This document shows, in pieces, positions 12,760-39,803 of a stretch of DNA of 64,000 bases. The position numbers were made by a program, and so were the translations under genes. Source of the DNA: a virus (lineage: Duplodnaviria; Caudoviricetes); IMG/VR virus record IMGVR_UViG_3300024297_000001. The stretch is one strand, 5' to 3'. Each line of letters begins with the position of its first letter. Within the stretch, counting starts at the first letter, position 1. The notes under the pieces are model-generated. The model worked only from the letters and a program-made list of their open reading frames with translations. It made no database searches and was not told the origin of the DNA.

Positions 12760-12761
12760 CG

Positions 12762-15226: not shown

Positions 15227-15231
15227 TTACT

Positions 15232-15576
15232 ATGGACGAGAAACTATCAAAAGCCTTAGAATTTGGAAACTATTCTGCAACTCTTAATAACCAAAGAAGA
15301 ATGTTGAAAGAAAAGTTTGCTACAGAGTCAATGTATTTCTTTGCAGGTGGACAATTTACAATTACTAAAGAGTTGATTAACTATGTTTACACATTAAAAT
15401 CAACAGAGCAAGATTCATTTGTATTAATTGATGATACAGATACTCCGATCTTAATTGAAGACATATCAGACTTTTACAATAATATTACAGACAAATACTA
15501 TGTTGCACTAAACAACTATCACAAAGATTACAGCAAACTTGAAAAAAGTAGATCTGTAGACGGATTGGTGGAATGA
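15232..15576 (+). CDS. Hypothetical protein (first gene of the enzyme island)
   Basis: 114 aa ORF, ATGA overlap with the next gene. Confidence 0.7.
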   Translation: MDEKLSKALEFGNYSATLNNQRRMLKEKFATESMYFFAGGQFTITKELINYVYTLKSTEQDSFVLIDDTDTPILIEDISDFYNNITDKYYVALNNYHKDYSKLEKSRSVDGLVE

Positions 15577-16394
15577 GCAGTGGAGTACTATTATTTGCAT
15601 TTAATAATGAGCAAGTGGATTATGTATCACAGGCTCAGTACCTTGCAAAAAGAATACGCAAATATTTAGACTTACCAACTACACTTGTAACAGATGATGT
15701 AGAACGTGTTGTAAAATTTTACAACGGAAAAGAAGTGTTTGACGAAATTCTTTCTTCGTCTATAGAACAAAAAAATCACAAAACATATCACGACGGAAGT
15801 TTATCTAAAAAAGTATTAGAGTTTAAGAACTTTAATAGAAGTGATAGTTACGATATAAGTCCTTATGATAGAACTCTTGTGTTAGATACGGACTACATTA
15901 TAAGTAACGACTTACTTGCACAAGCAATGAAGTTACCACATGAACTAATGATGTATAAAGACAGTATGGATATTAGTGGTTGGCGTGATACAAGTGAGTT
16001 TAAATTAATTAGTGAAACATCAATAGACTTTTGGTGGGCAACTTGTATTATATTTGACAAGTCAGAACGTAATAATGCTTTCTTTGATCTTGTAAAACAT
16101 ATAAAGAAAAATTACGAACACTATCGTAATCTATATCAAGTTACAACAACAGTATTTAGAAATGATATTGCATTTAGTATTGCAAATAACATCATGGGTT
16201 ATACAAAAGAACTGCCGGGCAAAATGGTTTATAGCACAGGCAAAGATATATTACAAGAAATTAAAGACGATGAATTAACTTTACTTGTTGAAAAACAAGA
16301 TCGTGTAGGAGAATATACACTAATAAAGTCAAAAGGTATAAATTTGCATGTAATGAATAAGTTTAGTTTAGGAAGGGAGATTACAAATGCCTAA
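15573..16394 (+). CDS. GT-A fold glycosyltransferase (GT8-like)
   Basis: DxD motif in SPYDRTLVLDTDYII; N-terminal GVLLFAFNN strand. Confidence 0.7.
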   Translation: MSSGVLLFAFNNEQVDYVSQAQYLAKRIRKYLDLPTTLVTDDVERVVKFYNGKEVFDEILSSSIEQKNHKTYHDGSLSKKVLEFKNFNRSDSYDISPYDRTLVLDTDYIISNDLLAQAMKLPHELMMYKDSMDISGWRDTSEFKLISETSIDFWWATCIIFDKSERNNAFFDLVKHIKKNYEHYRNLYQVTTTVFRNDIAFSIANNIMGYTKELPGKMVYSTGKDILQEIKDDELTLLVEKQDRVGEYTLIKSKGINLHVMNKFSLGREITNA

Positions 16395-17202
16395 TTTTAC
16401 CTTCCTTGCACAAAACAGCGAATACAATTACATACGTCAAGCAGAACTATTAGCATTAAGCATTAGGAAAACTAATCCAGATAGTAAAATTTGTTTAATT
16501 ACCAACGATGATGTAGAACAAAAAGAATTGTTTGATGACATTGTACCTATACCATGGGAAGATAAAGCAGAAGAACACAAGTGGAAAGTACAAAACCGTT
16601 GGAAGATTTACCATGCTTGTCCATATGATGAAACTTTTGTATTAGACACAGACATGATTGTATGTCATGACCTAACACACTGGTGGAACCTAATGCAAAA
16701 TTACGAAGTTTTTTACACAACAAACGTTACAGATTATAAACAAAGTAAACTTAATGTAACATATTATAGAAAAATGTTTGAAGCAAACAACTTACCAGAC
16801 ATTTATGTTGCACTACACTATTTTAAGAAGTCTGACTTTGCAAAAAAGTTTTATGAAGCGTTAGAATACACAATGAAAAATTGGGAAGAGTGTTATACAA
16901 AGTATGCACCAAAGAAAATGCAAAAGATTGCCAGTGTAGATGTGTGTACAAGTATTGCAATTAAGATGTTAGGTGTAGAAAACAAAGTTACAAACAAGAC
17001 TTTAGCATTTCCTACGTTCGTTCATATGAAGCCTTATGCACAAACTTGGAATACACAAACAAAGAAGTGGCAAGATCGTGTAGGTTGTTTTGTTAATGAC
17101 GATGCACAGTTAAGAGTAGGCGGGCATTTACAAGACACAGTGTTTCATTATACTGAAAAAGATTTTACGGATAGATTTTATGACAGATATGCACAAAGAT
17201 GA
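16387..17202 (+). CDS. GT-A fold glycosyltransferase (paralog of the previous gene)
   Basis: CPYDETFVLDTDMIV DxD motif; FVHMK C-terminal His motif. Confidence 0.7.
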   Translation: MPNFTFLAQNSEYNYIRQAELLALSIRKTNPDSKICLITNDDVEQKELFDDIVPIPWEDKAEEHKWKVQNRWKIYHACPYDETFVLDTDMIVCHDLTHWWNLMQNYEVFYTTNVTDYKQSKLNVTYYRKMFEANNLPDIYVALHYFKKSDFAKKFYEALEYTMKNWEECYTKYAPKKMQKIASVDVCTSIAIKMLGVENKVTNKTLAFPTFVHMKPYAQTWNTQTKKWQDRVGCFVNDDAQLRVGGHLQDTVFHYTEKDFTDRFYDRYAQR

Positions 17203-17743
17203 AGTACAAACATATATAGAGTTTGATCCTAAGACAGGAAACATTCAAACTATTACCTCCTATCCTCAGAACCAACACATAGAAGTTAATCCTGATGATG
17301 TAAAAGGATTATTAGATGGCTCAGAAAACTTCTTACACTACAAAGTACAGTTCAACCCAACTTCAACCATGTATGAACTTGTCAATGTGTATGATGAAGA
17401 ACGTTTCGAATACAATGTACACAACAGCATATACAAAGTACCTACAGATATTGAAGCAGACATTAATATTATAAAAAATTACAAAACAAAAACATGGCAA
17501 CTACAGTTTGGCAAACTATTTTCCAAAACATTAGAAAAGAATAGTGTAACATTACAAACTGTTAAAAATTTTAGCGTAGTTGCTAAGAACGATCCTTATA
17601 AACTACATAGAACATTACGATTTAATTTAGCAGATACAAATTTAGACTTGCAATTTGATCAAGATGATGCTATAATAACACAATACGACTTATATACTAA
17701 CAAGTTGTTCAACAGTTACAGCACAGGAGTCATTAATGATTAA
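17180..17743 (+). CDS. Hypothetical protein
   Basis: 187 aa ORF coupled to its neighbours; no motif recognised. Confidence 0.6.
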   Translation: MTDMHKDEVQTYIEFDPKTGNIQTITSYPQNQHIEVNPDDVKGLLDGSENFLHYKVQFNPTSTMYELVNVYDEERFEYNVHNSIYKVPTDIEADINIIKNYKTKTWQLQFGKLFSKTLEKNSVTLQTVKNFSVVAKNDPYKLHRTLRFNLADTNLDLQFDQDDAIITQYDLYTNKLFNSYSTGVIND

Positions 17744-18623
17744 GATTGCAGAACAAGATATTATTTTTTTAAGTTACGATGAGCCTAATGCTGAAGAAAA
17801 CTGGGCAGACTTAAAAAGAAAAGTGCCGTGGGCAAAACGTGTACATGGTGTAGAAGGTAGTGATGCCGCACACAAGGCATGTGCAGACTTATCAGAAACT
17901 AAACACTTCGTTACAGTTGACGGAGACACTATTGTTGATCCTAAATTTATAGAAGTAGTATTAGACTTAGACAAGTTAGGTGTAGATGACGACTATCAGT
18001 TTAGTTGGTGTGGTAAGATTGACGTCAACGGACTAATGTATGGTAACGGTAGTTTAAAAATGTGGACTAAAGAGTTTGTTAAGAATATGAAAACTCATGA
18101 AAACACAGATGGTTCTGATGATACACAAATAGAATTCTGTTACTTTGACAACTATTATCAACTCAACGAAAATTATAGTAAAAGTATTATTACTGCTACT
18201 CCACACCAAGCATGGCGAGCAGGATTTAGAGAAGGTGTTAAGATGTCATTGGATAGAGGAACACCTATTAATGACTTGAAAGAGTTATGGTGGCAGAATT
18301 ATCATAGATTGTTAGTCTGGATGATGGTAGGTGCAGATGTTGAAAACGGTTTATATAGTATTCTTGGTGCAAGACAAGGTTGTTATAAAACAATGTGTAC
18401 CGAATGGGATCATACGCAAACAAGAGATTTTTTATACTTAAATAAACTGTGGGAAGAAAGCGATTTTCACAGTGGTAATGTTGTGGATCGTATTACAGAT
18501 ATAGGAACTTTAATTAGAAATGAATTAGATGTTCCTCTTGCAGTACATCCATATGATAATGAACAAAGTGAATTTTTTAAAACTGTTTACAAAAATAGTG
18601 ATAGGGTGATTAGACGAAAATGA
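17736..18623 (+). CDS. Glycosyltransferase-like protein (GT-A, DGD motif)
   Basis: DIIFLSYDEPNAEENW...HFVTVDGD; paralog of 25332-26021. Confidence 0.6.
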   Translation: MIKIAEQDIIFLSYDEPNAEENWADLKRKVPWAKRVHGVEGSDAAHKACADLSETKHFVTVDGDTIVDPKFIEVVLDLDKLGVDDDYQFSWCGKIDVNGLMYGNGSLKMWTKEFVKNMKTHENTDGSDDTQIEFCYFDNYYQLNENYSKSIITATPHQAWRAGFREGVKMSLDRGTPINDLKELWWQNYHRLLVWMMVGADVENGLYSILGARQGCYKTMCTEWDHTQTRDFLYLNKLWEESDFHSGNVVDRITDIGTLIRNELDVPLAVHPYDNEQSEFFKTVYKNSDRVIRRK

Positions 18624-18865
18624 AAATTAGGTACTATCGAAATATCAAGGGGTGGCGTTGGTTAGGATTTTTTCTTGCCATGGCATCTGCTTATATTTTA
18701 AGTAGTGGTAATCCTGACTACCAAGTTATGGGTTGGAGTGTTGCATGTTTTAGTTGTGGCATTTGGATTTACATGGGTTGGAAAGACGGAGATACACCAC
18801 GTGCATTGATGGAACTGTTTTATTTGGTACTTGCTATACGTGGAATTATTAACTGGATTCAATGA
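18620..18865 (+). CDS. Small membrane protein (about 3 hydrophobic segments)
   Basis: 81 aa, hydrophobic and Trp-rich; ATGA overlaps on both sides. Confidence 0.6.
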   Translation: MKIRYYRNIKGWRWLGFFLAMASAYILSSGNPDYQVMGWSVACFSCGIWIYMGWKDGDTPRALMELFYLVLAIRGIINWIQ

Positions 18866-20229
18866 GCGAAGTAGAAAGAATAAAGCAGATAATGCCAGAG
18901 GTCGACAAGATCTCTCCTACCTTCTGCTTGGCTAAATGGCACCACGTAACAATATATTTGCAAACAGGCGAAACACACAGTTGTTATCACCCAGCACCAC
19001 ATAAGATTCCACTTGAAGGATTAATTGACAATCCAAGTCAACTACACAATACACCGCAAAAGAAACAAGAACGTAAACAAATGCTTGAAGGCGAAAAGCC
19101 AAGCGGTTGTCAATACTGTTGGAATATTGAATGTATGGGTAAAGACTATATTAGTGATAGGCATATTAAAACAGCAAGTATATACACACCTAAACGTATT
19201 GAAGAAATAAAAAGTAATCCATGGGATTATAATATTAATCCAGAATACATTGAAATAAATTTTAGTAATGAATGTAATTTTAAATGCGGTTACTGCCATC
19301 CTAAGTTTAGCAGTAGATACTATAACGAAATTAAAAAAGAAGGTCCATATACAGATGTATCTGCACACCGTAATGACATTGATTGGTTTGAATTATATGA
19401 AGAAGAAACTAATCCTTATGTAGAAGCATGGTGGAAGTGGTGGCCAGAAGTTAGTAAGACACTAAACATCTTACGTGTTACAGGCGGCGAACCTTTAATG
19501 CACAAAAGTACTTGGCGTTTGTTTGACGAACTTGAAGCAAATCCTAAACCACATATTCAAATTGAAGTAAACAGTAACATGGGTGTTAAGGAATCTCTTG
19601 TACACAAACTTGTAGAACGTGTAAAAGAACTTAAAGCAAAGAACTGTATAAGAAGTTTCAAATTATACACAAGCATAGATACTTGGGGACCTAAAGCAGA
19701 ATACACAAGACGTGGATTAGATATTGAACTATGGGAAAAGAATTTAGATTACTATCTAACAGAACTTGGTTATCCTGTAACGTTTATGATTACATTTAAC
19801 TTGTTTGCTGTAACGAGTTTTGATTTATTGCTTAATAAAATACTTGAATGGCGTAAGAAGTACACAAGATCTAATGCAGGTGTACAATGGCAAAACATTA
19901 GATTTGATACTCCTTATCTAAAAGAGCCAATACAGTTTGACATGAACATATTACCTAAGGATCAGTTTGTTCCGTACATGACAAGGCACCTACAGTTCAT
20001 CGGAGACAACGTTGATGACAATGACCGCCATAAGTTTAGTTTGTTGGAGTATGAGCGTTTTAGACGTGTTGTAGACTATATGCGTACAACTACTTACGAT
20101 GATAAGAAGTTAGCAATAGGACACAAAACTTTTTATAATTGGTTTACGCAATATGATAAACGTAGTGGTAGTAGTATTGTTAAAACGTTTCCGGAACTTA
20201 AAGAATTTTATGATTCTTGTAGATCTTAG
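18862..20229 (+). CDS. Radical SAM protein with N-terminal SPASM/twitch-like Cys cluster
   Basis: CNFKCGYC (CxxxCxxC), TGGEP; N-terminal FCLAKWHH...HSCYH...GCQYCW. Confidence 0.9.
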   Translation: MSEVERIKQIMPEVDKISPTFCLAKWHHVTIYLQTGETHSCYHPAPHKIPLEGLIDNPSQLHNTPQKKQERKQMLEGEKPSGCQYCWNIECMGKDYISDRHIKTASIYTPKRIEEIKSNPWDYNINPEYIEINFSNECNFKCGYCHPKFSSRYYNEIKKEGPYTDVSAHRNDIDWFELYEEETNPYVEAWWKWWPEVSKTLNILRVTGGEPLMHKSTWRLFDELEANPKPHIQIEVNSNMGVKESLVHKLVERVKELKAKNCIRSFKLYTSIDTWGPKAEYTRRGLDIELWEKNLDYYLTELGYPVTFMITFNLFAVTSFDLLLNKILEWRKKYTRSNAGVQWQNIRFDTPYLKEPIQFDMNILPKDQFVPYMTRHLQFIGDNVDDNDRHKFSLLEYERFRRVVDYMRTTTYDDKKLAIGHKTFYNWFTQYDKRSGSSIVKTFPELKEFYDSCRS

Positions 20230-21217
20230 AAGCAAGAATTTGATTGTGTGTTAACACAGCATTCATTTCATTTAACATTTCTTTACAGTCATCAATACTT
20301 AATAACTTAATGCTATCTAACAAGTAACGTATTTTGTTCATACGTTTTGTATGATCTTCTTCAGTATCGTAACTTTCGTCCCAAGTAAATGTTTTAAATC
20401 CTAACTCACGAATGTATTCTAATGTATAAGGTGGTGCAACGCAAACAAAAGGACGTTTATGTATCATTGCGTTAACAGTTTTCTCACTAAAGTTTCCTGT
20501 AGGCTGATAGAAACGTGTTTCGTTTGCTACAACGCAAAAACTTTTTTCATAGTAAGCAGATAAACTTGCTGGACCGTTTAGTTGTCCTATAGGCCATTTT
20601 TTATGTGCAGGGTCTATACTTTGTAATTCTGTATCAATGCTTAATGCTGGATCACTAAATGCCCAACTATAGTAACCTGGTGTATCTTGTAAGTGTTCTA
20701 TTATTAAACGTCTGTGTAAACTATAACGCCAATTAGGACAAATAAAGTGTTTATCAATATTGTTGTTAACATTAACAATACCGCCGTTGAATTGATTGCG
20801 TAAAAATATATCAAAGCATTTAAGTTCAAACGGATAGTAGTCTATATGTTTGTTTACATTGTAATCACAAGTGTATACAGTAATTTCTGCATTTAATTTT
20901 TTACTAAATTCTAAAATACTATCTAATTCATCAGCACGTAATTTTTCTCCGCCTTGAAATTCGCTAAAGAAATCTCTGTTATGCTTTTTACCATCTTCGT
21001 ATAATGTTAATGGTTCGTACAAATATATGTTAAGTTTTTTAAGTTTCTTTAACATTTTAGGAGTAAGAGGAAACTTATCAAAGTCTATATTATTTGTACC
21101 TGTGTATATAATAAAAGGATCTTTAGGAAACCAATGTTCAAATAGTTCAGTAAACATTGAACCTAACTTTGTAGATTTTACAGGAAGGTTACCCCAGAAT
21201 ATATCTTGTTTGAACAT
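20198..21217 (-). CDS. Glycosyltransferase-like protein (GT-B type C-terminal half)
   Basis: SFCVVANET...FSEKTVNAMIHKRPFV...LGFKTF..WDESYD resembles GT10/exostosin-like phage proteins. Confidence 0.5.
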   Translation of the reverse strand: MFKQDIFWGNLPVKSTKLGSMFTELFEHWFPKDPFIIYTGTNNIDFDKFPLTPKMLKKLKKLNIYLYEPLTLYEDGKKHNRDFFSEFQGGEKLRADELDSILEFSKKLNAEITVYTCDYNVNKHIDYYPFELKCFDIFLRNQFNGGIVNVNNNIDKHFICPNWRYSLHRRLIIEHLQDTPGYYSWAFSDPALSIDTELQSIDPAHKKWPIGQLNGPASLSAYYEKSFCVVANETRFYQPTGNFSEKTVNAMIHKRPFVCVAPPYTLEYIRELGFKTFTWDESYDTEEDHTKRMNKIRYLLDSIKLLSIDDCKEMLNEMNAVLTHNQILASKIYKNHKIL

Positions 21218-21711
21218 TACCAGTAAGTGCCGGTGATTTGTAAAGTGTATCTTGGATCAACTCCAATGTTGCTGGCCGCATGTGGAGTATCAGGTTGCCA
21301 TAAAACATATTCACCTGCTTTCCAATTTACAAATGCTTTGCTATCTACTTCAAAGTAGTGTCCTGGTTTCCAGTCTTCTAAGAAAACAATAGCACGTCTT
21401 ACTTCGTTACGTTCTTTGTTAAACACTTTACAATATGTATTATAATGATCAACGTGTGTAGGCATGATATCTAACGTATCCATTTTGTAAAATACAAAAC
21501 CAGGATTATGTAAATTAAGTAATTGTGCTACTTGAATTGCATAGTCAGGCATTGTATTACGACTGTCATACATTTTGCCTGTTGTATTTTCATGCGTATA
21601 GCCTTGCTTACGCCAAGCGTCAGACTCAGCACCTGTAATAGGTTGTCTAACGTAATTGAAGTATTTGTATCCTTCGTCCCATAATACAGGACATTTACCT
21701 TTAGTCCACAT
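21217..21711 (-). CDS. 2OG-Fe(II) oxygenase (Asp/Asn hydroxylase-like cupin)
   Basis: PTHVD (HxD) ... PHAASN (distal His) ... RYTLQITG. Confidence 0.7.
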   Translation of the reverse strand: MWTKGKCPVLWDEGYKYFNYVRQPITGAESDAWRKQGYTHENTTGKMYDSRNTMPDYAIQVAQLLNLHNPGFVFYKMDTLDIMPTHVDHYNTYCKVFNKERNEVRRAIVFLEDWKPGHYFEVDSKAFVNWKAGEYVLWQPDTPHAASNIGVDPRYTLQITGTYW

Positions 21712-22669
21712 CTCTTTTTGTATCCAATGTTACGCAGTGAAATCCACCGCCAAGTGTACGTTGATGTCGCATTGGTAACATAGCACACTCTATTCCTTGG
21801 TGCTCAAGAAGGTGTCTTAGATCCTCTTGGTGTTCTTCTAATGCAACTAACTTTGTATTTACACTAAACAAGTTCATGTTAATCCACGTACTTGCATTAC
21901 ACCATTTAGGATAGTGGCCAATGTCTACAGGTTCAGGACACCATATAATATCCCAATTTCTAAATGGCTCAGGTAAATCTTCTCTTACTTTTATTCTACT
22001 TGGATTAACAAGTAATAACCCTTCACGTAAAAATGCAACAGTACTGTCAATATGCATGTAACTATAAACATTTTGTAATAGGTTTACTTTAGCAGTAGCA
22101 CCTAAGGCACCTTGTAATAAATTTGCACCTAACTTGTTTGCACTATTACTAACCAAGTATAACAGTTGGTCGTTTGCACGAATTATATTCGCGGCATCAA
22201 AAGCAGGACTGTATTCATTAAGTGCTAAAATATCTTTATTGCCAATACATTCTTTATTGTATAATTGACTTTCGTTGAAGCAACGTATTTCTTTTGGGTT
22301 ATCTAAATGATCTTCAAATGCTCTCCACTCGCCTTTTCTTGCACGTATAGGCATTGGTGTAGCAAGTGTTAGGTTACCATGTATAAACACACTGTCTCGA
22401 GGACAGTAATTATAGTAATGACAATCTGTTTTCTCTGGACGTACAACTTCTACACTTTCTGCTTGTAAAAATTTTACAAATGTTTCTAAGTCTTCATTTG
22501 CTTCTTCAATAACTTTACTTGGGTAAGGACCTTTGATAATTTCTGTTTCGTCTTTTTTATCTGCAAAATTAACACAACGTAAACTAATATCTATATCATA
22601 AGGTATCTTGGCTTTGTCTGCAATGCCAACAATTACTTTTCTAAGTTGTCCCCATTCGTTTGTGTTCAT
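21701..22669 (-). CDS. Amidinotransferase (glycine / inosamine-phosphate amidinotransferase family)
   Basis: NEWGQLRKVIVG, YCPRD, FDAAN, HID and C-terminal GGFHCVTLD (catalytic Asp/His/Cys). Confidence 0.9.
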   Translation of the reverse strand: MNTNEWGQLRKVIVGIADKAKIPYDIDISLRCVNFADKKDETEIIKGPYPSKVIEEANEDLETFVKFLQAESVEVVRPEKTDCHYYNYCPRDSVFIHGNLTLATPMPIRARKGEWRAFEDHLDNPKEIRCFNESQLYNKECIGNKDILALNEYSPAFDAANIIRANDQLLYLVSNSANKLGANLLQGALGATAKVNLLQNVYSYMHIDSTVAFLREGLLLVNPSRIKVREDLPEPFRNWDIIWCPEPVDIGHYPKWCNASTWINMNLFSVNTKLVALEEHQEDLRHLLEHQGIECAMLPMRHQRTLGGGFHCVTLDTKRDVD

Positions 22670-23250
22670 TTAAAAACCTTCATGTCTGGAAGATATGGAT
22701 AATCATTACTGCTCCATTCCTTTGTTGGTTCAGTAACGTTTTCTAATTTTTCAATACCAAGTTGTGCAGTTTCTGGAGTCATATAATAATGATATCCTAT
22801 GTATTGAATGTCTTGTTCGCCCCATGGCTTATCATCTGTTCTACCATCATGTGCCATTGCTTTTAATACTGCATAGTCTGTTTCATTAGGACATAATATT
22901 GCACCGCCTCTACCTAAACTTAACATTTTCTTATGTTGAAAACTCAAACACTTATAGGTGTTAGGCATGTAACTATTACGTTTGAAACTAACAGCACCGT
23001 CTATAATTCTTGTACCACCTAATACATATTCTTCATTCCAAGAAGCATCAACAAACTCCCAATCAATGTTTAACTTCATTAATGTAAATGGAATACTAAT
23101 ATACGTTCTTGTAGGTATCTTTACGTGGTTAGGCTTTAGATATCGTAAACAAAGTTCAATAGAATGGGTACAACTATCCGTTGCAACGGCAAATGGTGCA
23201 TTATAATACTCTGCAATGCGTTTTTCGAACTCTTTCACGGTTTCAAACAT
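22666..23250 (-). CDS. DegT/DnrJ/EryC1/StrS PLP aminotransferase, short form (194 aa)
   Basis: FEKRIAEYYNAPFAVATDSCT, IIDGAVSF, LSFQHKKML..GRGGAI, GYHYYMT; start reassigned to ATG 23250. Confidence 0.8.
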   Translation of the reverse strand: MFETVKEFEKRIAEYYNAPFAVATDSCTHSIELCLRYLKPNHVKIPTRTYISIPFTLMKLNIDWEFVDASWNEEYVLGGTRIIDGAVSFKRNSYMPNTYKCLSFQHKKMLSLGRGGAILCPNETDYAVLKAMAHDGRTDDKPWGEQDIQYIGYHYYMTPETAQLGIEKLENVTEPTKEWSSNDYPYLPDMKVFK

Positions 23251-23255
23251 ACACA

Positions 23256-23263: not shown

Positions 23264-23274
23264 TGCGTAGTTAA

Positions 23275-32694: not shown

Positions 32695-32942
32695 CAAACG
32701 TAACACGCAAAGATGCATATAGAGTTTTTTGGTTAGTAAAAGGTCACTTTAATGCAACAGAAGATTGTATCTTTGATTGTTATGATAGTTATTTTAAAAG
32801 AGTTTGGTACATGGAAGAAACATATTTACATGAAGAAGGTTTTGAAGAAGCATACGCAAAGGTAACAAACACATATACTCAACGTGCTTGGGACAGAACA
32901 GTTGGTTATGGAACAGTGCCAGAGGAATACAAATGCGAATAG
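32691..32942 (+). CDS. Hypothetical protein
   Basis: 83 aa ORF, ATGA-coupled. Confidence 0.55.
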   Translation: MTNVTRKDAYRVFWLVKGHFNATEDCIFDCYDSYFKRVWYMEETYLHEEGFEEAYAKVTNTYTQRAWDRTVGYGTVPEEYKCE

Positions 32943-33481
32943 TTGTAACAGGTAATCCTAAGTATGAAGGATTATGCTCAGGTATATGGGAAGCCTACAG
33001 TCGTAATCAAGTAGAATTTATTGGTAGATGGAATGACTGGGATCTTACAGATGCTGACGCAGTAGCAGAATACGTAAAAGATCATAATGTATTTGTAAAC
33101 AGTCAATACGGTCCTAATGGCGAACAAGTAGAATTGTTACGTAAGGTATATGAAAAGTTTAATGGTGAACACATTATTAATATTTCAAGTACAACAAGTT
33201 ATTGGGGTGACGGTTATAATCCAGGCGACTATCTTAAAAACAAAACTGAACTTGATGAATTAAGTAAGAAGTATTCACAGTACGGAACATTTGGTAGTAG
33301 CAAAATTCGTGTAAGCAATATTGCGTTTGGTCAACTTGCATCACAAACACAATTAGATAAAAGCACTAATAATAAAATTAGTTTACTTGAAGCAGGTAAA
33401 CTTGTTAAATGGGTAATTGATAGTCCACGTAGTTACAACTTACACTATATGGCACTTGATCCTATACAAAGAGATCTTTAA
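32933..33481 (+). CDS. Short-chain dehydrogenase-like (minimal SDR)
   Basis: IVVTGN, VFVNS, INISST, YLKNK (YxxxK); SD GAGGA before ATG 32933. Confidence 0.6.
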   Translation: MRIVVTGNPKYEGLCSGIWEAYSRNQVEFIGRWNDWDLTDADAVAEYVKDHNVFVNSQYGPNGEQVELLRKVYEKFNGEHIINISSTTSYWGDGYNPGDYLKNKTELDELSKKYSQYGTFGSSKIRVSNIAFGQLASQTQLDKSTNNKISLLEAGKLVKWVIDSPRSYNLHYMALDPIQRDL

Positions 33482-34580
33482 GTTCCGGACAAAAATTTAA
33501 AACACTTGTATCTCTAATCTTATCTAAATCCTTAGTATAGTTTACAAACATATCTAATAGTTTACTATTGTTTTGTTCGTATGTTATGTTAGGCAACTTA
33601 TGTTTAATGTTGTGTAATATTTCATTAGGCAATACACGTGGATTCAAATAGGCAGGTTGTGCTACAACATTATTAAAGTATATACTCCAATTATCTTTTT
33701 TGTTAGCATCAAACCAATCTTGTATTTTATCCAAGTGTGAAATGTTATATGCCATTACAGTTACAGCAATAATAATTCTATCAAAGTCATATTGTTTTAA
33801 ATTATCATTTAGTTGTTCAAACGTAAAGTTCTTTCCACCTCTAATGTATTCATACAATCCATCAGTACCTTCAACACTTACAGTCCATTTAGTTTCGCCA
33901 TAATGTCTTGCAAGTTCTTGTACTTCCTCATCAACGATCGTACCATTCGTAGTCCAGTCAAGTGTAACATTTTTTGCAACTCCTAAGTCTATAAACTTCT
34001 GCAATATCTTTTTGTTTGCAGGTTCCATATAAGGCTCTCCGCCTTTAATACTAAGATAACGTAACCCCATAAACGGAGTAGGATCTTCAAATAGTCTTTG
34101 TATTATTTGTTCACTTTTATTAACATATCCAAACTCTGGATTGTCAATTCTTCTATGATATGGGTTACCATTTTTTGCAAGTTTCAATTCGTCCTTGACC
34201 CAAGCACTTGAATTGATTCCATCGCACATACGGCATTTCAAATTACAAATATTACTCATATTGAACTCCAAAAATTTGATATCGTGGAAGTTTTTTGAGT
34301 AATCATTATTGGATCCTTCAAGCATAGGATTCAAAATATCACGGAAGAATAATCTTCGGCTATGACCTACTGTAGCCTCTTTTAAAGCACATTGTTGGCA
34401 CTCGGGCGGTAACACTCCATTACGGATACTATCCTTTGTGTATGACGCTGTAAATGCGTTTAAGACGGTGTTTAAGGGCTCTTGTAGCACGTTTCCGTAG
34501 CGGTTTGTGTACACACCATCGGGTACAATATCGCCGTTAAAACGTACCAAAATACTATGCCAAGGTGCGTAACATTTCAT
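33462..34580 (-). CDS. Radical SAM protein with degenerate N-terminal SPASM-like region
   Basis: CNLKCRMC, KGGEP; N-terminal CYAPWH...GDIVPDG (CC replaced)...ECQQC; SD GGAGAG before ATG 34580. Confidence 0.9.
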   Translation of the reverse strand: MKCYAPWHSILVRFNGDIVPDGVYTNRYGNVLQEPLNTVLNAFTASYTKDSIRNGVLPPECQQCALKEATVGHSRRLFFRDILNPMLEGSNNDYSKNFHDIKFLEFNMSNICNLKCRMCDGINSSAWVKDELKLAKNGNPYHRRIDNPEFGYVNKSEQIIQRLFEDPTPFMGLRYLSIKGGEPYMEPANKKILQKFIDLGVAKNVTLDWTTNGTIVDEEVQELARHYGETKWTVSVEGTDGLYEYIRGGKNFTFEQLNDNLKQYDFDRIIIAVTVMAYNISHLDKIQDWFDANKKDNWSIYFNNVVAQPAYLNPRVLPNEILHNIKHKLPNITYEQNNSKLLDMFVNYTKDLDKIRDTSVLNFCPELKDLFV

Positions 34581-35019
34581 CGAATTTCTCTCCAAAAGCA
34601 GACCTTAAATCGCTTTCCAATTTATCAAAAACCACATTGGGTTGATACACACCTACATTGTCCCAATCAATTAATTCATAGGAATCACCCTGTACAATAA
34701 TGTTACTGAGTACCCAATCTCCGTGTGCAAATGGTTGTGTTTCATTTATGTTCTGTAAACAAAAGTCGTATATGCTTTTTACAAATTCAGATGTGTGCGG
34801 TAGTGTGTTTGCTACAGTGCCTTCGATAATTTTAGTATCAATAAACATTCTGCCACCTTCAACACCATGATTAATAATGTAACCAGGACGCACTTCTTCC
34901 ATTATATCAATATGGTCGTCAAGCCATTCTTGATTTGTAAAGTCCCATTGCTTACGATAAAAGTTTGCACCTTTGTAAACACGTCTTAGTTTTTCTTTAT
35001 TTTCCTTTATTAATTCCAT
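34555..35019 (-). CDS. APH/choline-kinase-like phosphotransferase (minimal)
   Basis: FAHGDWVLSNI (HGDxxxxN) and LIDWD. Confidence 0.75.
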   Translation of the reverse strand: MELIKENKEKLRRVYKGANFYRKQWDFTNQEWLDDHIDIMEEVRPGYIINHGVEGGRMFIDTKIIEGTVANTLPHTSEFVKSIYDFCLQNINETQPFAHGDWVLSNIIVQGDSYELIDWDNVGVYQPNVVFDKLESDLRSAFGEKFDEMLRTLA

Positions 35020-36049
35020 ATGCTTCTGCAACTTCAGGAATGTAATCCTGTATGTGGCATCCTCTTAATTTATCAAATGTTTTTATCCAATGTAAAAATG
35101 CATTTTGTTGTACTTGATCTGGTTCTTGGTTTACCCAATACTTAAATTTTTCTGGCGAAAACTTTTTAATTGTATCAGGTGCATTCTTTGAATCAAAGTA
35201 TGTAGGATGAAAAAGTAAATTATCAAACACATCAAAGTCATTTGTTTTTGCCCATGCAACAATATCATTGTAATTATGTAAGTTCATTATTTGTATAGTT
35301 GGACCTACACTTTTATATTTTACAAATTCTGCCCAACGTAACATATTTGTTTCTACAGTTTTCCAATCACTTCCCCAACGTATGTAATCATTTACTTTAC
35401 CTATACCGTCAATACTAAAACACATATTAACAGTATCGAAACGTTTTAGTTCTTCATATACATTAGGATTAATAATTGTAGCATTAGTATTAAATCTTAT
35501 TTCAACACTGTTATCTAACTTCTTAAGAAACTTATGTAAGCCTCTTACCATCATAGGTTCGCCACCTGTTAAGTACACTTCTCTAAGTTCAGGTAAACTT
35601 GCAAGGTAATCTCCACGTTCTTCTGTGTACCAATCGTAATTAGGAAACTGTTCATTACCCCAAGGCGATTCCATACCTTTTGCAATTAGTTCTTTATGAT
35701 CCTGATTAACACCGCTTGATGTTGCAGGGTAACACATAGTACACTTTAAATTACAGTTACTACCAAAACGTAAATCAAGATGACTTACACCAGGCCCGTA
35801 TGGTCTTGGTTTTGTACGTTGACTACCTTCACCGGACGCTTCTTGTATTTCGCATTTTTTACAAGCCTCTGGGAATTCATTATTATCAAACTTTTGAACT
35901 GCGTCTTTAAACACTTTACTTTCACGCCATTCTTCTATAGTGTGTGTTTGAATGTTTTCTTTGTTTGTAGGTTCGTTACTAATACAACACAGACGAAACT
36001 CGCCAGAAGTTCTAATGCAAACTTGATGATCTAAATATTTACACTTCAC
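34997..36049 (-). CDS. Radical SAM protein with N-terminal SPASM/twitch-like cluster
   Basis: CKYLDH...GEFRLCC...ACKKC; CNLKCTMC; TGGEP. Confidence 0.9.
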   Translation of the reverse strand: MKCKYLDHQVCIRTSGEFRLCCISNEPTNKENIQTHTIEEWRESKVFKDAVQKFDNNEFPEACKKCEIQEASGEGSQRTKPRPYGPGVSHLDLRFGSNCNLKCTMCYPATSSGVNQDHKELIAKGMESPWGNEQFPNYDWYTEERGDYLASLPELREVYLTGGEPMMVRGLHKFLKKLDNSVEIRFNTNATIINPNVYEELKRFDTVNMCFSIDGIGKVNDYIRWGSDWKTVETNMLRWAEFVKYKSVGPTIQIMNLHNYNDIVAWAKTNDFDVFDNLLFHPTYFDSKNAPDTIKKFSPEKFKYWVNQEPDQVQQNAFLHWIKTFDKLRGCHIQDYIPEVAEAYGINKGK

Positions 36050-37025
36050 CGCAAGTTACCTCACATATTTTAAATCTATTGTCACTTGGATGATTTAGTA
36101 TATCGCTTTCAAGTATTTCTTCTAATGGCATATTATTAACATTAGGCCATTCTACACTGTTACATTCTTTTGCATAAGGACTATCAGGATTTTTAGCATA
36201 ACGATCACTTAACAAATAGCAACAAGGAAACACTTCGCCTGTATGACTTATTTGTATTTTTTGTTTTTTCTTCCACTTACAAGTTATACAACCTTTATCA
36301 AATCCTTTTTCAATCAAACCTTTTACACGTTTTACATTATCTAACTTACTTGTATCATATGCAATGGTACGTGCTTGTTCTTTTTTAGTTGCTTTAAAAG
36401 TTTCTACTGCTTCATTAATAACACTATCAATAGCAGTAAAAGTATAACCACCATTAATGTCAAAAACTTTGAAACCCATGTCTTTGCTTAATTCTTCTGC
36501 TTGTTCTATTTGATGTTTGTTATGTTCAAACACAAGCATACGCCAACGTGCAATACCACCTGAGTCTATAAATGCTTTTGCATTTTCCATAACACTTTTC
36601 CATACCACATGTCGTCTATATAAATGATTAGTATCTTCCAATCCGTCTATGCTAAAGGTAATAATTGCTTGAGGGAAGCCACTTAAAATTTGTGCTAACA
36701 TTCTATATAAATTAGGTTTACCTATACCACCATTAGTGTGTATCATAATTTTACATTTTAATTTTTTTCTTGCATACTCTAATGCAAAAGGTAAATTAGG
36801 ATTCATAATAGGATCGCCATAAGATCCATTAAAAATTATTTCATCAATTCCTTTAGCATTGTCAACAATGTTCTTCCAAGTGTCCATATCCATATGACCA
36901 AGAGGCATGTTAGGATTGACTTTTACTCCGTCAATATTCCGTGAGCAGTTACCGCACATAGCATTACAATGGCTCGTGAAGTCTACTACAAGTGTCTTTA
37001 AGTCCTTTTTTCGTACGAATGGCAT
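36039..37025 (-). CDS. Radical SAM protein with C-terminal twitch domain (paralog of 28919)
   Basis: CNAMCGNC, GSYGDP; ITC...ISHTGEVFPCC...CEVTC; start reassigned to ATG 37025. Confidence 0.88.
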   Translation of the reverse strand: MPFVRKKDLKTLVVDFTSHCNAMCGNCSRNIDGVKVNPNMPLGHMDMDTWKNIVDNAKGIDEIIFNGSYGDPIMNPNLPFALEYARKKLKCKIMIHTNGGIGKPNLYRMLAQILSGFPQAIITFSIDGLEDTNHLYRRHVVWKSVMENAKAFIDSGGIARWRMLVFEHNKHQIEQAEELSKDMGFKVFDINGGYTFTAIDSVINEAVETFKATKKEQARTIAYDTSKLDNVKRVKGLIEKGFDKGCITCKWKKKQKIQISHTGEVFPCCYLLSDRYAKNPDSPYAKECNSVEWPNVNNMPLEEILESDILNHPSDNRFKICEVTCGEV

Positions 37026-37030
37026 CATAG

Positions 37031-37078
37031 TATTTACCGCCAAAAAAGTAGCACTTAATGAACCCTGGCAGGTAAATA
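37031..37078. promoter_or_regulatory. Back-to-back late boxes, each 5 nt before an ATG
   Basis: Minus: ggcggTAAATA-ctatg-ATG(37025). Plus: ggcaggTAAATA-tgagt-ATG(37084). Confidence 0.7.
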
Positions 37079-37083
37079 TGAGT

Positions 37084-37800
37084 ATGCAGGAATTAGAAAA
37101 ATACCATAGCGAACATGGCATCCTGAAGCAAGAATTATACCCAGATACATTTGATCCGAAGTGGTTAGTAATGGAAAGCGGTTGGGGTTATTTTCATCTT
37201 AGTGCTTTAGATAACCAACCATGGAAAGAAATGCACAAAGAAGCAGAAGCACTTGCTGATAAGTTTCATAGTCATAGAGAAGATAGTTATGGCAAAGGTT
37301 GGAAGAGTCTAACACTACATGGACTAAATGAAGATACACAAAGTTTAAATCAATATGGCGATAGAGATAAAGTTCTTGAAGAATTAGATTGGACTTGGGT
37401 AGCAGACGAATGTCCTGTTACTAAAAAGTTTTTAACAACAGTATGGCCTGCAGAGTTTTTAAATCGTGTAAGGTTTATGTTACTTGAACCAGGCGGTTAC
37501 ATACTACCACATCAAGATCGTAAAGACGAAGAAAAGCGTTTGAGTGTTTGTAACATCAGTCTAAACAATCCAGAAGAATGTCAATTTGTTTACAAAGACA
37601 AAGGCATTGTTCCTTTCAAAGACGAAGGTAGTGCGTTCTTAATGGATATTAGTAACGTACACAGTGTTTGGAATCGTAGCGACAAACCAAGAATACATAT
37701 GATTATACATTACGAACTTGGTAGACGTACAAGAGATATGTTTTATACATTAAGGGAAAGTTTCTACACTAATAGGAGAACACTTGATGGATTGGAATAG
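37084..37800 (+). CDS. 2OG-Fe(II) oxygenase (aspartyl/asparaginyl beta-hydroxylase-like)
   Basis: ILPHQD, VHSVWNRSDKPRIHMII; start reassigned to 37084. Confidence 0.75.
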   Translation: MQELEKYHSEHGILKQELYPDTFDPKWLVMESGWGYFHLSALDNQPWKEMHKEAEALADKFHSHREDSYGKGWKSLTLHGLNEDTQSLNQYGDRDKVLEELDWTWVADECPVTKKFLTTVWPAEFLNRVRFMLLEPGGYILPHQDRKDEEKRLSVCNISLNNPEECQFVYKDKGIVPFKDEGSAFLMDISNVHSVWNRSDKPRIHMIIHYELGRRTRDMFYTLRESFYTNRRTLDGLE

Positions 37801-39241
37801 TCTTACAGTTGATCGTTATTACGAAGATCTAAATTCTAATAACGAAGTTGGTGTAGGTATATTAGACATCACACGAGATATCGATAACGAATTTGTTGCC
37901 AAACGTACATTCGATATGACTTACTTCTACATTAACAGAATGATTAAAATGAACTTATGTTCATATGTAGGACGACATAAGACTGTAAAAGAAATATTAG
38001 AAAATGCAATTATAGAAGGTAAGAAATATTGCATGGTGGCATGCCAAGGATTACTATTATATAGAGGTCCAAGTTTAGTGCAGAAAAGTGTTGCATACGC
38101 AGAAAACAATCCGCAGTTTTTTGTTATAGGACATATTATGGACAAGCAAGGCCAACATCATTATCTAACCAAAGGTGCTTATCCTGGATTACATAGACAA
38201 TACTTGTTTGTAAATTTAAACAAATGGGTTGAATTAGGACAACCAGAGTTTGATGAACTTGGTGTGTTTACTGACCGACCAAGAAACTACCGCAATGTAG
38301 AATACAGTGAAGAAAAGGTTCACAGTGAATATACACCTAAGTGGGTAAAAGGTGCAGAAGGTTATATGCAGAGTACTATTACTGCTGATGGAAGTAACTG
38401 GATACATCTTGCCGCAGAAAATGATATTACTATTGACAATCTTGATAACGATATGCGAGAATGTAAAGTATTTTTATATCCTTACAACAAGCCAGACATA
38501 CTTGAAAAGGTATGGTTAGATAAAACTAATGACAAACTTGTTGATCAATTAAACTACAGTCAACGTGCATGGATACGTAAATTAGGATATCAAGAAGAAA
38601 TAGAAAAGAACAGAGTGTATGCTTTTAACACAGAAAGATTAAGTGGAGAAGGTGTACGTACAAGTACTTTTATAGATCATTTCTTTAGTGCGGCCGCAGG
38701 ATTTAAACCACTTGCAATATTAAATGCAAACGGCTTTCATGAAGGTACTACAGTACATTACTTTGATTGGTGCGAAGCAAGTTTAAACTATAAGAAGCAT
38801 TTATTAGAAACTTGGGACGGTTATGATTTGGATAAATGGCTCTTAGAAAACGATTTACAGTATAATTTCAGTAGCACTTACCGTGCCAACTATAAACAAT
38901 TCTGGGAACAAGAACTAAAAGAGTTCGGTGGAAACCTTGCTTTTCAAAGATTATGGTCAAGGTATAGAGATTTAAAACATGAGTTTCATGTAATTGATAT
39001 TGTACAAGACAGTGATAAACTGTTTGATATAATAGATAATGTACACGGAACAAAAGTATTATGGACTACAAACATATGGTCAAGCGAAATGCTACAATGG
39101 AATATAGAACCAGAAGAACTTGAAAAGCATTACACAAAATTTAAAAGCAGAGTAAAAAATCTCGTAGTATACGGACACGATTACTGCGGTATTGATTTAA
39201 ACGATAGTGTCAAAGGAAACTATACACATGTCAAATTTTAG
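37784..39241 (+). CDS. Hypothetical 485-aa protein
   Basis: Long intact ORF in the operon; no family recognised with confidence. Confidence 0.7.
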   Translation: MMDWNSLTVDRYYEDLNSNNEVGVGILDITRDIDNEFVAKRTFDMTYFYINRMIKMNLCSYVGRHKTVKEILENAIIEGKKYCMVACQGLLLYRGPSLVQKSVAYAENNPQFFVIGHIMDKQGQHHYLTKGAYPGLHRQYLFVNLNKWVELGQPEFDELGVFTDRPRNYRNVEYSEEKVHSEYTPKWVKGAEGYMQSTITADGSNWIHLAAENDITIDNLDNDMRECKVFLYPYNKPDILEKVWLDKTNDKLVDQLNYSQRAWIRKLGYQEEIEKNRVYAFNTERLSGEGVRTSTFIDHFFSAAAGFKPLAILNANGFHEGTTVHYFDWCEASLNYKKHLLETWDGYDLDKWLLENDLQYNFSSTYRANYKQFWEQELKEFGGNLAFQRLWSRYRDLKHEFHVIDIVQDSDKLFDIIDNVHGTKVLWTTNIWSSEMLQWNIEPEELEKHYTKFKSRVKNLVVYGHDYCGIDLNDSVKGNYTHVKF

Positions 39242-39803
39242 AATAGAACGGGTTGGCAGATATTGTAGAATAGCAGATTGGCAAGTAAATGTTGACCTAA
39301 CAGATTATTATAAAAGAGCAAAAGAAAAAGGCTTTGTTAATAATGCAAGTCGTGAAATGCTTATTGATTGTTTTAATAATGAAAGCCAAATGCACTTGTT
39401 CTTACTTTACGAAGATGATACAATTATTGGAACACAGGTGTTACATACGTTTCCAGAGATGGGACCTAATTGTTGGAGAGTAGGAAGAACAAGTTTACTT
39501 GTACCACCATTAGGCAAAGGCAAAAGTATTATTACAAAGTTTCAAAATCATACAGATCAATTTTTACATCCTGCCGTTATTAAATTTGTATCAGAACGCA
39601 AAGGTGAATTGTATTCAACTACAAATATGAATCCAGAAGCCAAACAAAATCAATCACACTTAATATATTTTCCTTTAATAGAAAAGATGGGTGTAGTTGA
39701 TAAAGTTGGAGATATGGATTACAGATATACCAAACAGTCAGTTTGGAAATTTAACTTTAATCGTTTTTGGGAATTGTATAACTTATTTCCTAAATGGAAT
39801 TAA
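39228..39803 (+). CDS. GNAT-like acetyltransferase
   Basis: LFLLYEDDTIIG...WRVGRTSLL...GKG; SD AAGGAAA before ATG 39228. Confidence 0.5.
   Translation: MSNFRIERVGRYCRIADWQVNVDLTDYYKRAKEKGFVNNASREMLIDCFNNESQMHLFLLYEDDTIIGTQVLHTFPEMGPNCWRVGRTSLLVPPLGKGKSIITKFQNHTDQFLHPAVIKFVSERKGELYSTTNMNPEAKQNQSHLIYFPLIEKMGVVDKVGDMDYRYTKQSVWKFNFNRFWELYNLFPKWN

Follow-up and report, generated by a model that had tools for sequence, protein, structure and literature searches.

Virus-encoded clusters of glycan type have already been noted, without explanation, in the phages CP220 and S-SCSM2R. The Campylobacter phages CP220 and CPt10 carry an 'interchangeable module' of radical S-adenosylmethionine (rSAM) and amidinotransferase genes, to which no function was assigned (Timms et al. 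2010, PMC2853527), and ORF301-310 of the cyanophage S-SCSM2R (PQ898602) were named 'antibiotic synthesis genes' by the authors, without data (PMC12801897). Here we describe an island of this kind in the virus record IMGVR_UViG_3300024297_000001 (Duplodnaviria; Caudoviricetes), from which a stretch of 64,000 nucleotides, called the window below, was analysed. The island (15232-39803, 24.5 kb) lies between structural genes and comprises 31 open reading frames (ORFs), which follow each other with gaps or overlaps of a few bases and form five transcription units. A preliminary description of the window had counted about 30 contiguous genes here and proposed a system for virion glycosylation or aminosugar tailoring; the gene count was recovered, and the sugar- and aminosugar-tailoring character of the inventory holds.

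The island is best explained as a late, cytoplasmic pathway that would build and edit an unusual oligosaccharide and attach it to a soluble acceptor, most likely the fibres or other virion proteins. We put the probability of this reading at about 0.4. Decoration of the virion, the target favoured in the preliminary description, is plausible from the soluble glycosyltransferases (GTs), the promoter boxes and the fibre context, the acceptor being deduced from these features. New here are the predicted leaderless late-promoter architecture, the fusions between GT and rSAM domains, two fold assignments, a corrected gene start and the orthology with S-SCSM2R genes.

CP220 and CPt10 are large T4-related myoviruses, like the source of the island. 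In CP220, five or six rSAM genes, an amidinotransferase gene and two genes of nucleotide-diphospho-sugar transferase fold stand directly after baseplate genes (gp5-like, PAAR), and the module is swapped between close relatives, as are the variable parts of the island. Identity is only 20-28%, however, the CP220 module measures about 10 kb against 24.5 kb, and it contains a PAP2 lipid phosphatase gene, whereas no dehydrogenase, DegT, AspH or kinase is annotated in it. A tblastn comparison of the island rSAM gene 29910-31214, which encodes an N-terminal twitch (N-twitch) enzyme, with CP220 gave no match. S-SCSM2R, also a marine phage, has orthologues of three island genes (mini DegT aminotransferase, 53% identity; amidinotransferase, 62%; cupin, 38%), interleaved with one rSAM gene and five annotated glycosyltransferase genes. 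Unlike the source of the island, it is a T4-like cyanophage and not a Rak2-type jumbo phage, its genes are not beside fibres, and it has one rSAM gene against eight, with none of the eight finding a match there. The preliminary description had stated that protein glycosylation systems of this size are known mainly from giant eukaryotic viruses, which omits these closer cases (PMC2853527, PMC12801897) as well as the bacterial clusters of Bdellovibrionota described below.

The systems of chlorovirus PBCV-1 (A064R and partners), of Mimivirus (fibril glycan clusters) and of mycobacteriophages (capsid and tail glycosylation) resemble the island in using soluble, virus-encoded GTs of the GT-A fold on structural proteins in the cytoplasm, although the acceptor of the island is deduced from genes; both GT-A domains modelled here have PBCV-1 A64R among their fold matches. 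Aminosugar tailoring of DegT type occurs in Mimivirus, and we know of no rSAM enzyme or amidinotransferase in the chlorovirus, Mimivirus and mycobacteriophage glycosylation systems. Known examples of phage virion glycosylation involve one to a few GTs, but glycosylated virions have been shown for them, whereas the island is known from genes alone. In aminoglycoside pathways (BtrN, HygY, NeoN, AprD4, StrB1), the rSAM enzymes combine, as in the island, an rSAM core with one auxiliary-cluster (twitch) domain, and a DegT aminotransferase, an APH-fold kinase and a StrB1-like amidinotransferase co-occur in both. The twitch domain of the island enzymes is N-terminal and not C-terminal, however, and the island has no cyclitol synthase.

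Setting and predicted late control of the island

To judge from its sequence, the source is an abundant, uncultured marine jumbo myovirus, because of its similarity to Rak2/CBB/Atu_ph07-type jumbo phages, its presence on marine contigs, an estimated genome size of about 350 kb (extrapolated from CheckV estimates for relatives) and the lack of a close record. The similarity was found by tblastn with a protein of 204 amino acids (aa) from the left arm, which is 44-56% identical to structural or baseplate proteins of these phages, and when the complete island was compared by megablast with 50,697 phage records, neither a match nor a close cultured phage emerged. TARA and other marine contigs of 173-229 kb contain the island in identical form; 309 blocks of the contig collection include an exact copy of one of its proteins, and a search with one N-twitch rSAM yields 3407 relatives at E <= 1e-5. 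The GC content of the window is low (0.32-0.40), gene runs are long and same-strand, and about 7% of the genome is devoted to the island.

The left arm encodes a protein of more than 2650 aa, the 204-aa protein and three fibre paralogues with PHROG tail or tail-fibre matches. A gene for a 306-aa protein lies 3' of these paralogues, and 26 bp further, without a terminator in between, unit A begins; on the right, the island and the convergent fibre-like gene 39800-41110(-) share 4 bp at the stop of that gene. Both borders agree with those first proposed. The three fibre genes, in a row at 8612-14271(+), encode proteins that begin with MAY.IN.T and are nearly the same over their first 90 aa or so, whereas the C-terminal halves diverge; the trio looks like alternative receptor-binding fibres on one attachment domain. 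The features are as follows.

7994-15205, plus strand: upstream structural genes (baseplate-type protein, three fibre paralogues, 306-aa Ser/Thr-rich protein), candidate acceptors
15232-20229, plus strand: unit A, seven genes, contiguous with the fibre genes, GTAAATA-N5-ATG at 15221-15234
from 15232, plus strand: 114-aa ORF, family not assigned
15573-16394 and 16387-17202, plus strand: GT8-like GT-A proteins (language-model features, 0.96-0.99)
3' of 16387-17202, plus strand: 187-aa ORF, family not assigned
17736-18623, plus strand: GT2-like GT-A protein (GT2-like automatic cluster name; about 30% identity in a cross-match to 25332-26021)
18620-18865, plus strand: 81-aa membrane protein, the sole transmembrane-like segment in a small island protein
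18862-20229, plus strand: N-twitch rSAM (NF033640, 309.5 bits)
20198-23250, minus strand: unit B, accessory 'amidino module' of four genes, ATAAATA-N5-ATG at 23248-23262
22666-23250, minus strand: first gene of unit B, mini DegT aminotransferase (Pfam, 60 bits)
21701-22669, minus strand: second gene, StrB1-type amidinotransferase (phmmer against PDB, 1bwd, E 2.2e-57)
21217-21711, minus strand: third gene, 164-aa HxD...H cupin
20198-21217, minus strand: fourth gene, 339-aa GT10-like candidate (weak GT10 lead)
23257-23347: divergent control region between units B and C, with TATAAATA on the minus strand and a conserved block containing AATAAGTA on the plus strand
23348-33481, plus strand: unit C, thirteen genes (Pfam, NCBIfam, GT-A fold model m11d931eafc65)
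23348-24532, plus strand: nucleoside diphosphate (NDP)-sugar dehydrogenase-like protein, 394 aa
after 23348-24532, plus strand: 270-aa ORF, first called SGNH, without a match to that family
25332-26021, plus strand: GT-A protein (fold model)
25999-26958, plus strand: rSAM
26955-27707, plus strand: truncated dehydrogenase, 250 aa
27697-28305, plus strand: methyltransferase (MTase)-like protein (weak)
28302-28919, plus strand: AspH-like protein
28919-29917, plus strand: rSAM-SPASM
29910-31214, plus strand: N-twitch rSAM (NF033640, 419.3 bits)
31205-31795, plus strand: short-chain dehydrogenase/reductase (SDR)-like protein (weak)
31750-32694, plus strand: rSAM
between 31750-32694 and 32933-33481, plus strand: 83-aa ORF
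32933-33481, plus strand: SDR-like protein (weak)
33462-37025, minus strand: unit D, four genes, GTAAATA-N5-ATG at 37023-37037
36039-37025, minus strand: first gene of unit D, rSAM-SPASM, 328 aa with corrected start
34997-36049, minus strand: second gene, N-twitch rSAM (NF033640, 223.2 bits)
34555-35019, minus strand: third gene, APH-like mini kinase (weak)
33462-34580, minus strand: fourth gene, N-twitch rSAM (NF033640, 217.8 bits)
37084-39803, plus strand: unit E, three genes, GTAAATA-N5-ATG at 37072-37086
37084-37800, plus strand: AspH-like oxygenase (Pfam Asp_Arg_Hydrox, E 1e-14)
37784-39241, plus strand: two-domain protein, GT-A N-domain and Rossmann/MTase-like C-domain (model m95e8bf80c041)
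39207-39803, plus strand: 198-aa ORF with a weak FeeM/GNAT hint
39800-41110, minus strand: convergent fibre-like gene at the right edge, two ATAAATA boxes upstream

The preliminary description had seen a TAAATA or TAAGTA box of late type upstream of each cassette. Such loose hexamers are too frequent to serve as a late signal (45 copies of TAAATA and 50 of TAAGTA in the window), and only longer or positioned forms are informative; two of these proved position-specific. ATAAATA occurs seven times in the 64 kb, six times at most 66 nt upstream of a same-strand gene start (chance about 3e-8), and it precedes three structural genes, the baseplate gene 7994 and the fibre genes 12793 and 41110 (two boxes), all of which have a leader and a Shine-Dalgarno sequence. 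TAAATA-N5-ATG occurs four times, always at the first codon of an island unit, namely 15232(+), 23250(-), 37025(-) and 37084(+), with A or G before the TAAATA and without a Shine-Dalgarno sequence at any of these starts. In a T4-type late unit, a TATAAATA-like -10 element recognized with a gp55-type sigma factor lies about 6 nt upstream of the start site. Since the N5 spacing of such a promoter puts +1 on the A of the ATG, units A, B, D and E are predicted to be transcribed as leaderless late mRNAs. The perfect TATAAATA is present in a single copy in the window, at 23256-23263(-), against about nine expected from shuffles, a depletion that fits selection against stray late promoters.

In place of TAAATA-N5-ATG, unit C has the conserved block containing AATAAGTA, which is kept in five relatives (L007, L009, L012, L018 and L019), even where an additional gene has been inserted downstream. 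In L012, L018 and L019, this extra gene of about 290 aa stands between those of the mini DegT and the dehydrogenase, just downstream of the block, which shows that cassettes are exchanged at the control region. The late-type boxes likewise persist in relatives despite divergence of the surrounding intergenic DNA. As first reported, no sigma-70 consensus was found in the island, when defined as a perfect 12/12 site (TTGACA-17-TATAAT); three such sites exist, all on the minus strand of the right arm (44077-44105, 49446-49474 and 52760-52788), where they probably mark early transcription units. The site at 44105 lies just downstream of a strong terminator with a 13-bp stem (44115-44144). Late-type, non-sigma-70 control of the island is thus well supported at the level of promoter motifs, and the late timing first proposed is also what the stricter boxes, shared with the structural genes, predict. 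Metatranscriptome contigs (studies X2 and X3) carry stretches that match island genes with an identity of 99% or more, at depth 2-6, and the fibre gene reaches depth 15 in X3. They were rejected as proof of expression, since DNA carry-over is possible and they say nothing on strand, start sites or timing.

Radical SAM enzymes, glycosyltransferases and their partners

The eight rSAM genes first reported (18862, 25999, 28919, 29910 and 31750 on the plus strand; 33462, 34997 and 36039 on the minus strand) all encode proteins that score above the gathering cut-off of PF04055 (32.8-48 bits against 29.5) and carry the CX3CX2C motif. They fall into three architectures: four have an N-terminal twitch domain, two a C-terminal SPASM domain, and two are shorter with a Cys-rich tail, their best, weak relatives being viperin and NrdG-type enzymes. 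The four N-twitch proteins (18862, 29910, 33462 and 34997) exceed the NF033640 cut-off of 170 bits with the scores listed above, and the remaining four, at 24-58 bits, are not members. For three of these members, SPASM precedes Radical_SAM in the Pfam matches, and for 18862 this order appears only through the full-length NF033640 match; C6, G19, C82 and C85 are invariant in the alignment of these paralogues. Gene calls on metagenome contigs start 36039-37025(-) at 36908, which gives a protein of 289 aa. This form would lose the Fe-S motif, and because the late-box spacing and the Pfam match agree on the ATG at 37025, they point to a start there and to a protein of 328 aa.

By phmmer against the PDB, neither the N-twitch nor the rSAM-SPASM proteins matched any solved rSAM structure significantly (best E 0.37, to SkfB), and similarities in NCBIfam to the peptide maturases PapB, AlbA, SkfB, YhhB and PqqE are weak and all far below cut-offs. 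We found no publication describing the chemistry of N_Twi_rSAM enzymes, rSAM enzymes with N-terminal twitch in phages, or rSAM together with GT genes in jumbo phages.

The preliminary description had counted about five GT-like proteins. Their GT2 scores are sub-threshold in Pfam (E 0.08-0.23), and two of these ORFs were therefore folded, 25332-26021 together with 40 homologues. The model of 25332-26021 (pLDDT 94) has only GT-A proteins as top Foldseek matches, with E from 7e-5 (WrtF, ArnC, RmlT, ppGalNAc-T and PBCV-1 A64R among them), and its D57-x-D59 is invariant or nearly so in the 40 sequences. The model of 37784-39241 (pLDDT 81) has a GT-A N-domain with VIA Z 8-10 to GT-A enzymes only and an AFDB match to a GT2-like protein at E 1.8e-17, although a canonical DxD was not seen in this domain; its Rossmann/MTase-like C-domain occurs elsewhere in an entry named AspH-type hydroxylase. 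Fold matches of this model include LH3, ColGalT1 and Mimivirus R699. The cross-matching pair 17736-18623 and 25332-26021 share weak GT2 hints in Pfam, 16387-17202 is GT8/Nucleotid_trans-like by language-model features alone, and 15573-16394, GT8/Nucleotid_trans-like by the same features, also cross-matches an orthologue of 16387 at 26-27% identity. phmmer against the PDB gave nothing useful for 20198-21217 and 37784-39241. The inventory would thus comprise five GT-A-like proteins, two of them confirmed by predicted fold, with the GT10-like protein of unit B as a candidate sixth.

The GT-A domain of the 25332 type is widespread, with 1356 cluster representatives. P0288 and P0327 combine it with an N-twitch rSAM in a fusion protein, and in the window a GT-A gene stands directly or closely 5' of an rSAM gene twice (17736/18862 and 25332/25999). 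These fusions and adjacent pairs suggest that GT and rSAM are functionally coupled. The domain also occurs in tandem in many proteins, among them one of 1735 aa with 16 matched stretches. On a related phage contig, the gene for this 1735-aa protein has as its neighbours orthologues of the genes for the dehydrogenase, the mini DegT, the amidinotransferase, the cupin and the GT10-like protein.

Other calls fared unequally. The amidinotransferase (21701-22669, minus strand) is firmly placed: phmmer finds 1bwd_A (StrB1) at E 2.2e-57 over residues 4-319, 5wpi at 2.7e-34 and 1jdw at 2e-28, so that StrB1 is the closest relative, followed by HsvA and SxtG, and a GGGFHC near the C-terminus holds the catalytic Cys and the HC motif. 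The DegT aminotransferase was likewise recovered (PF01041, 60.1 bits against a cut-off of 19.8), but with partial coverage of the model, as it is a mini form of 194 aa in a family of proteins of about 360 aa. It keeps the SFxxxK...GxGG motif of the lysine that binds pyridoxal phosphate, its short form is conserved in S-SCSM2R and in the phage relative L054, and its best NCBIfam leads, LegC and PseC, are far below cut-offs. All three proposed 2-oxoglutarate (2OG)-Fe(II) oxygenases have HxD...H; two are Asp_Arg_Hydrox proteins and the third is the 164-aa cupin, whose counterpart in S-SCSM2R is annotated as a 2OG-Fe(II) oxygenase. Operons of bacterial beta-hydroxylase-family dioxygenases co-occur with T4 tail-collar-type proteins (PMC2938197).

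The two NDP-sugar dehydrogenases of the preliminary description belong to the UDPG/GDP-mannose dehydrogenase family by their N-terminal and central domains, which pass in Pfam. Membership of the equivalog TIGR03026 is not supported by their scores (155.6 and 133.6 bits against a cut-off of 189.8), and while the 394-aa protein has a sub-threshold match to the C-terminal UDP-binding domain, the 250-aa protein lacks this domain. The latter (26955-27707) retains the catalytic Cys, and relatives have the same short form (68-76% identity), whose substrate may not be a free nucleotide sugar. Calls of SDR (E 1e-3), methyltransferase (E 0.02), APH-like kinase (E 0.006) and GNAT or FeeM-like protein (E 0.008) reach weak matches only, and the SGNH call found no match in profile searches. 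Ten ORFs left unexplained gave sub-threshold hints only with Pfam at E up to 10, and a PHROGs search returned two families of unknown function and one marginal match. All island proteins are soluble except that of 18620-18865, and no enzyme has a transmembrane segment. This 81-aa protein, encoded between a GT-A gene and an N-twitch rSAM gene, weakly matches the N-terminus of the nicotinamide riboside transporter PnuC (E 0.0014) and was not seen in the relatives compared.

Relatives of the island in phages and Bdellovibrionota

As a tblastn matrix over 21 loci shows, the island has a conserved core and exchangeable parts. The core consists of the GT-A gene 25332, rSAM 25999, the MTase-like gene, rSAM-SPASM 28919, N-twitch 29910, rSAM 31750, N-twitch 33462, the kinase-like gene, N-twitch 34997, rSAM-SPASM 36039, AspH 37084 and 37784. 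The amidino module, the gene after 24532, the SDR-like genes and the truncated dehydrogenase vary, and relatives carry instead a class-III aminotransferase, a QueC-like PP-loop gene, a flavodoxin-like reductase or a B12-rSAM. L054 has all four amidino-module genes in the same order, and the module is absent from L003 and L006, which keep the core; relatives have not retained the 83-aa and 114-aa ORFs. A comparison of related jumbo-phage contigs bears out the expected synteny: across relatives the island has a constant place between fibre genes, and down to about 65% identity it follows the baseplate and fibre genes; in four relatives of 65-95% identity it lies 22-28 kb downstream of the baseplate gene. 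In the right arm of the window, a 146-aa ORF (50673-51113, minus strand) has a counterpart of 96 aa, with 82% identity, within the rSAM island of the relative L003 (9003-9251) and may be a small mobile or shuffled gene.

Cellular homologues were sought in 185,579 species genomes with a pattern from a close alignment, as the alignment of the four paralogues held no stretch conserved enough. The closest ones of the N-twitch rSAM (40-46% identity, full length) belong almost exclusively to Bdellovibrionota, with contigs as long as 2.9 Mb, a predominance that gives a lower bound on range and not a full census because the scan was limited by its pattern. These bacterial clusters share with the island the GT-A protein (37-47%), the MTase-like protein, the N-twitch protein NTwi434 (40-46%), rSAM-SPASM (33-41%) and rSAM319 (47-53%), and some loci also have AspH, a homologue of 37784-39241 or the amidinotransferase. 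The oxygenase-GT pair of unit E is kept both in phage relatives and in the Bdellovibrionota locus L102. Each cluster has from seven to at least 12 rSAM genes. Unlike the island, they are chromosomal, have no virion context and include four Pfam-certified GT2 genes, an amine oxidase and a fatty-acid desaturase. Among the arrays observed, rSAM genes are packed most densely in a metagenome-assembled genome of Bdellovibrionia (L136; GCA_030424665.1, JAUHWN010000007.1), with at least 12 rSAM genes and two Asp_Arg_Hydrox genes in 21 kb. We found no publication on the rSAM/GT clusters of Bdellovibrionota.

A candidate pathway and its alternatives

A cytoplasmic glycan pathway is the reading that remains, because the enzymes are soluble and no flippase, polymerase, ligase, cyclitol synthase, exporter or conserved precursor peptide was found in the island; the predicted late timing and the fixed place among fibre genes make virion proteins its most likely acceptor. 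We infer each chemical step, like the acceptor, from the families, folds, solubility, boxes, position and GT-rSAM fusions observed. The NDP-sugar dehydrogenases, the SDR-like proteins and the mini DegT would convert nucleotide sugars of the host into uronic, keto and amino sugars, which five or six soluble GT-A transferases would add stepwise. The eight twitch/SPASM rSAM enzymes would then act on sugar C-H bonds out of reach of ordinary enzymes, the likely reactions being epimerisation, oxidation, deoxygenation and C-C or C-methyl chemistry. Such radical reactions on aminoglycoside sugars are those of BtrN, HygY, NeoN, AviX12 and AprD4. Methyl-, phospho- and amidino-transfer steps would contribute to the editing, and the AspH-type oxygenases would hydroxylate the glycan or a residue of the acceptor; one such oxygenase forms a pair with the GT-A protein 37784-39241 that recalls collagen lysyl hydroxylase and its galactosyltransferase. 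In this clade, the accessory module of DegT, amidinotransferase, cupin and GT would finally add a guanidino sugar. A more specific proposal, which we regard as doubtful, is that a battery of N-twitch rSAM enzymes, each with a GT-A partner that is sometimes fused to it, edits sugars already on a macromolecule, by epimerisation, oxidation or deoxygenation within a protein-linked glycan that is still growing, and finishes with the guanidino sugar, in the phage and independently in Bdellovibrionota; in the phage, it would be expressed from leaderless late mRNAs.

Several observations weigh against the virion-glycan pathway. The system is known from genes alone, and glycan, glycoprotein and transcript timing are unobserved for the phage or any relative. 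SPASM-type rSAM enzymes usually act on peptides, and several of the family calls rest on weak scores. The same core is found in Bdellovibrionota, where there are no virions, so that the ancestral acceptor was not a phage fibre. NxS/T sequons are enriched in the fibres (1.7-2.9 against 0.84 per 100 aa), but this excess may reflect Ser/Thr-rich composition alone, and a collagen-like acceptor was rejected, as the fibres have no G-X-Y runs. Finally, the likeness of the oxygenase AspH239 to OlsC and LpxO, together with the PAP2 gene of CP220, points weakly toward lipid or envelope targets.

Such targets are the basis of another explanation, in which lipopolysaccharide (LPS), lipid A, capsule or another cell-surface glycan of the host would be remodelled for superinfection exclusion or to prevent re-adsorption to debris; envelope remodelling has reportedly been proposed as the purpose of the LPS gene clusters of cyanophage P-SSM2. 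The Ugd/SDR/DegT/GT2 set mirrors the Arn logic of 4-amino-4-deoxy-L-arabinose (Ara4N) addition, ArnC is among the top fold matches of 25332-26021, the APH-like fold is also that of LPS core kinases, CP220 has its PAP2 phosphatase, and one Bdellovibrionota cluster adjoins a SIS (GmhA-like) gene and a fatty-acid desaturase gene. OlsC and LpxO are the best named relatives of AspH239, but at scores far below the cut-offs (23.6 bits against 450 and 15.9 against 500). With no membrane segment in any enzyme, no polyprenyl-phosphate transferase, flippase, polymerase, ABC exporter or ligase in Pfam scans of the 31 ORFs, and late-type promoters that would leave little time before lysis, remodelling of the envelope is unlikely. 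The amidinotransferase, closest to StrB1 and then to HsvA and SxtG, could instead belong to the synthesis of a diffusible small molecule, aminoglycoside-, aminocyclitol- or nucleoside-like, that would inhibit competing phages or cells or act as a signal. Its association with a DegT-type aminotransferase and an APH-like kinase follows streptidine logic, and twitch rSAM enzymes are prominent in aminoglycoside tailoring. Such a product is also what the label 'antibiotic synthesis genes' given to the S-SCSM2R orthologues implies (PMC12801897). The Pfam scans found no scaffold synthase such as 2-deoxy-scyllo-inosose (2-DOI) synthase or inositol-phosphate synthase, no exporter and no self-resistance gene, however, the amidino module is accessory, since relatives with the core can lack it, and the GT-A arrays (16 stretches in the 1735-aa protein) suggest a long defined glycan on a macromolecule, which makes a small molecule improbable.

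The placement between fibre genes would equally suit a direct modification of protein, as in ribosomally synthesized and post-translationally modified peptides (RiPPs), with cross-links, epimerisations and hydroxylations in fibre or capsid proteins or in a peptide, and sugars in a minor role. AspH-family enzymes do hydroxylate protein Asp and Asn, and the rSAM proteins show the weak similarity to many peptide maturases noted above, but their scores stay far below cut-offs and the rSAM genes are fused or linked to GT-A domains and sugar-nucleotide enzymes. Moreover, no small ORF that could encode a precursor is conserved with the rSAM genes across relatives or bacterial clusters, the 83-aa and 114-aa ORFs included, and we consider this explanation quite improbable. 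A still fainter prospect is hypermodification of DNA, in which a phage DNA base would be decorated with a tailored sugar or amine, possibly building on the predicted 7-deazaguanine genes at 51-62 kb. Known thymidine hypermodification pathways include rSAM and amino-transfer steps, and the islands of relatives hold a QueC-like PP-loop gene and a class-III aminotransferase gene. This aminotransferase is only 22% identical to that of the window (58541-59773) and therefore not its orthologue, and a link between the island and the deazaguanine genes was rejected on this ground. The island lies apart from the sigma-70-driven replication and modification arm, its late-type boxes are common to the structural genes, and the homologous clusters of Bdellovibrionota are chromosomal and stand beside GT2 genes. 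The preliminary description had taken late timing as an argument against DNA modification; a DNA target is indeed disfavoured, but timing alone does not exclude it, as the mom gene of phage Mu is a late DNA-modification gene.

If the more specific proposal is correct, in which rSAM enzymes edit sugars already attached to a macromolecule, the adhesion fibres would bear a non-canonical sugar coat that host glycosidases or lectins do not recognise, which would mean new enzymology of glycoprotein biosynthesis and a new layer of host-range determination. Phages known to decorate themselves are few and use one to a few transferases, whereas here 31 genes occupy a conserved place beside the fibres. 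The question is experimentally approachable because there are cultured carriers of smaller versions, namely S-SCSM2R (on Synechococcus WH7803), CP220 (on Campylobacter) and Bdellovibrio isolates. Solving the island would give the function of a large orphan enzyme family that reaches 8-12 copies per locus in phages and Bdellovibrionota, two kinds of bacterial predators, would probably reveal new radical carbohydrate chemistry, and would identify a factor that probably determines how marine jumbo phages adsorb, which hosts they infect or how stable their particles are.

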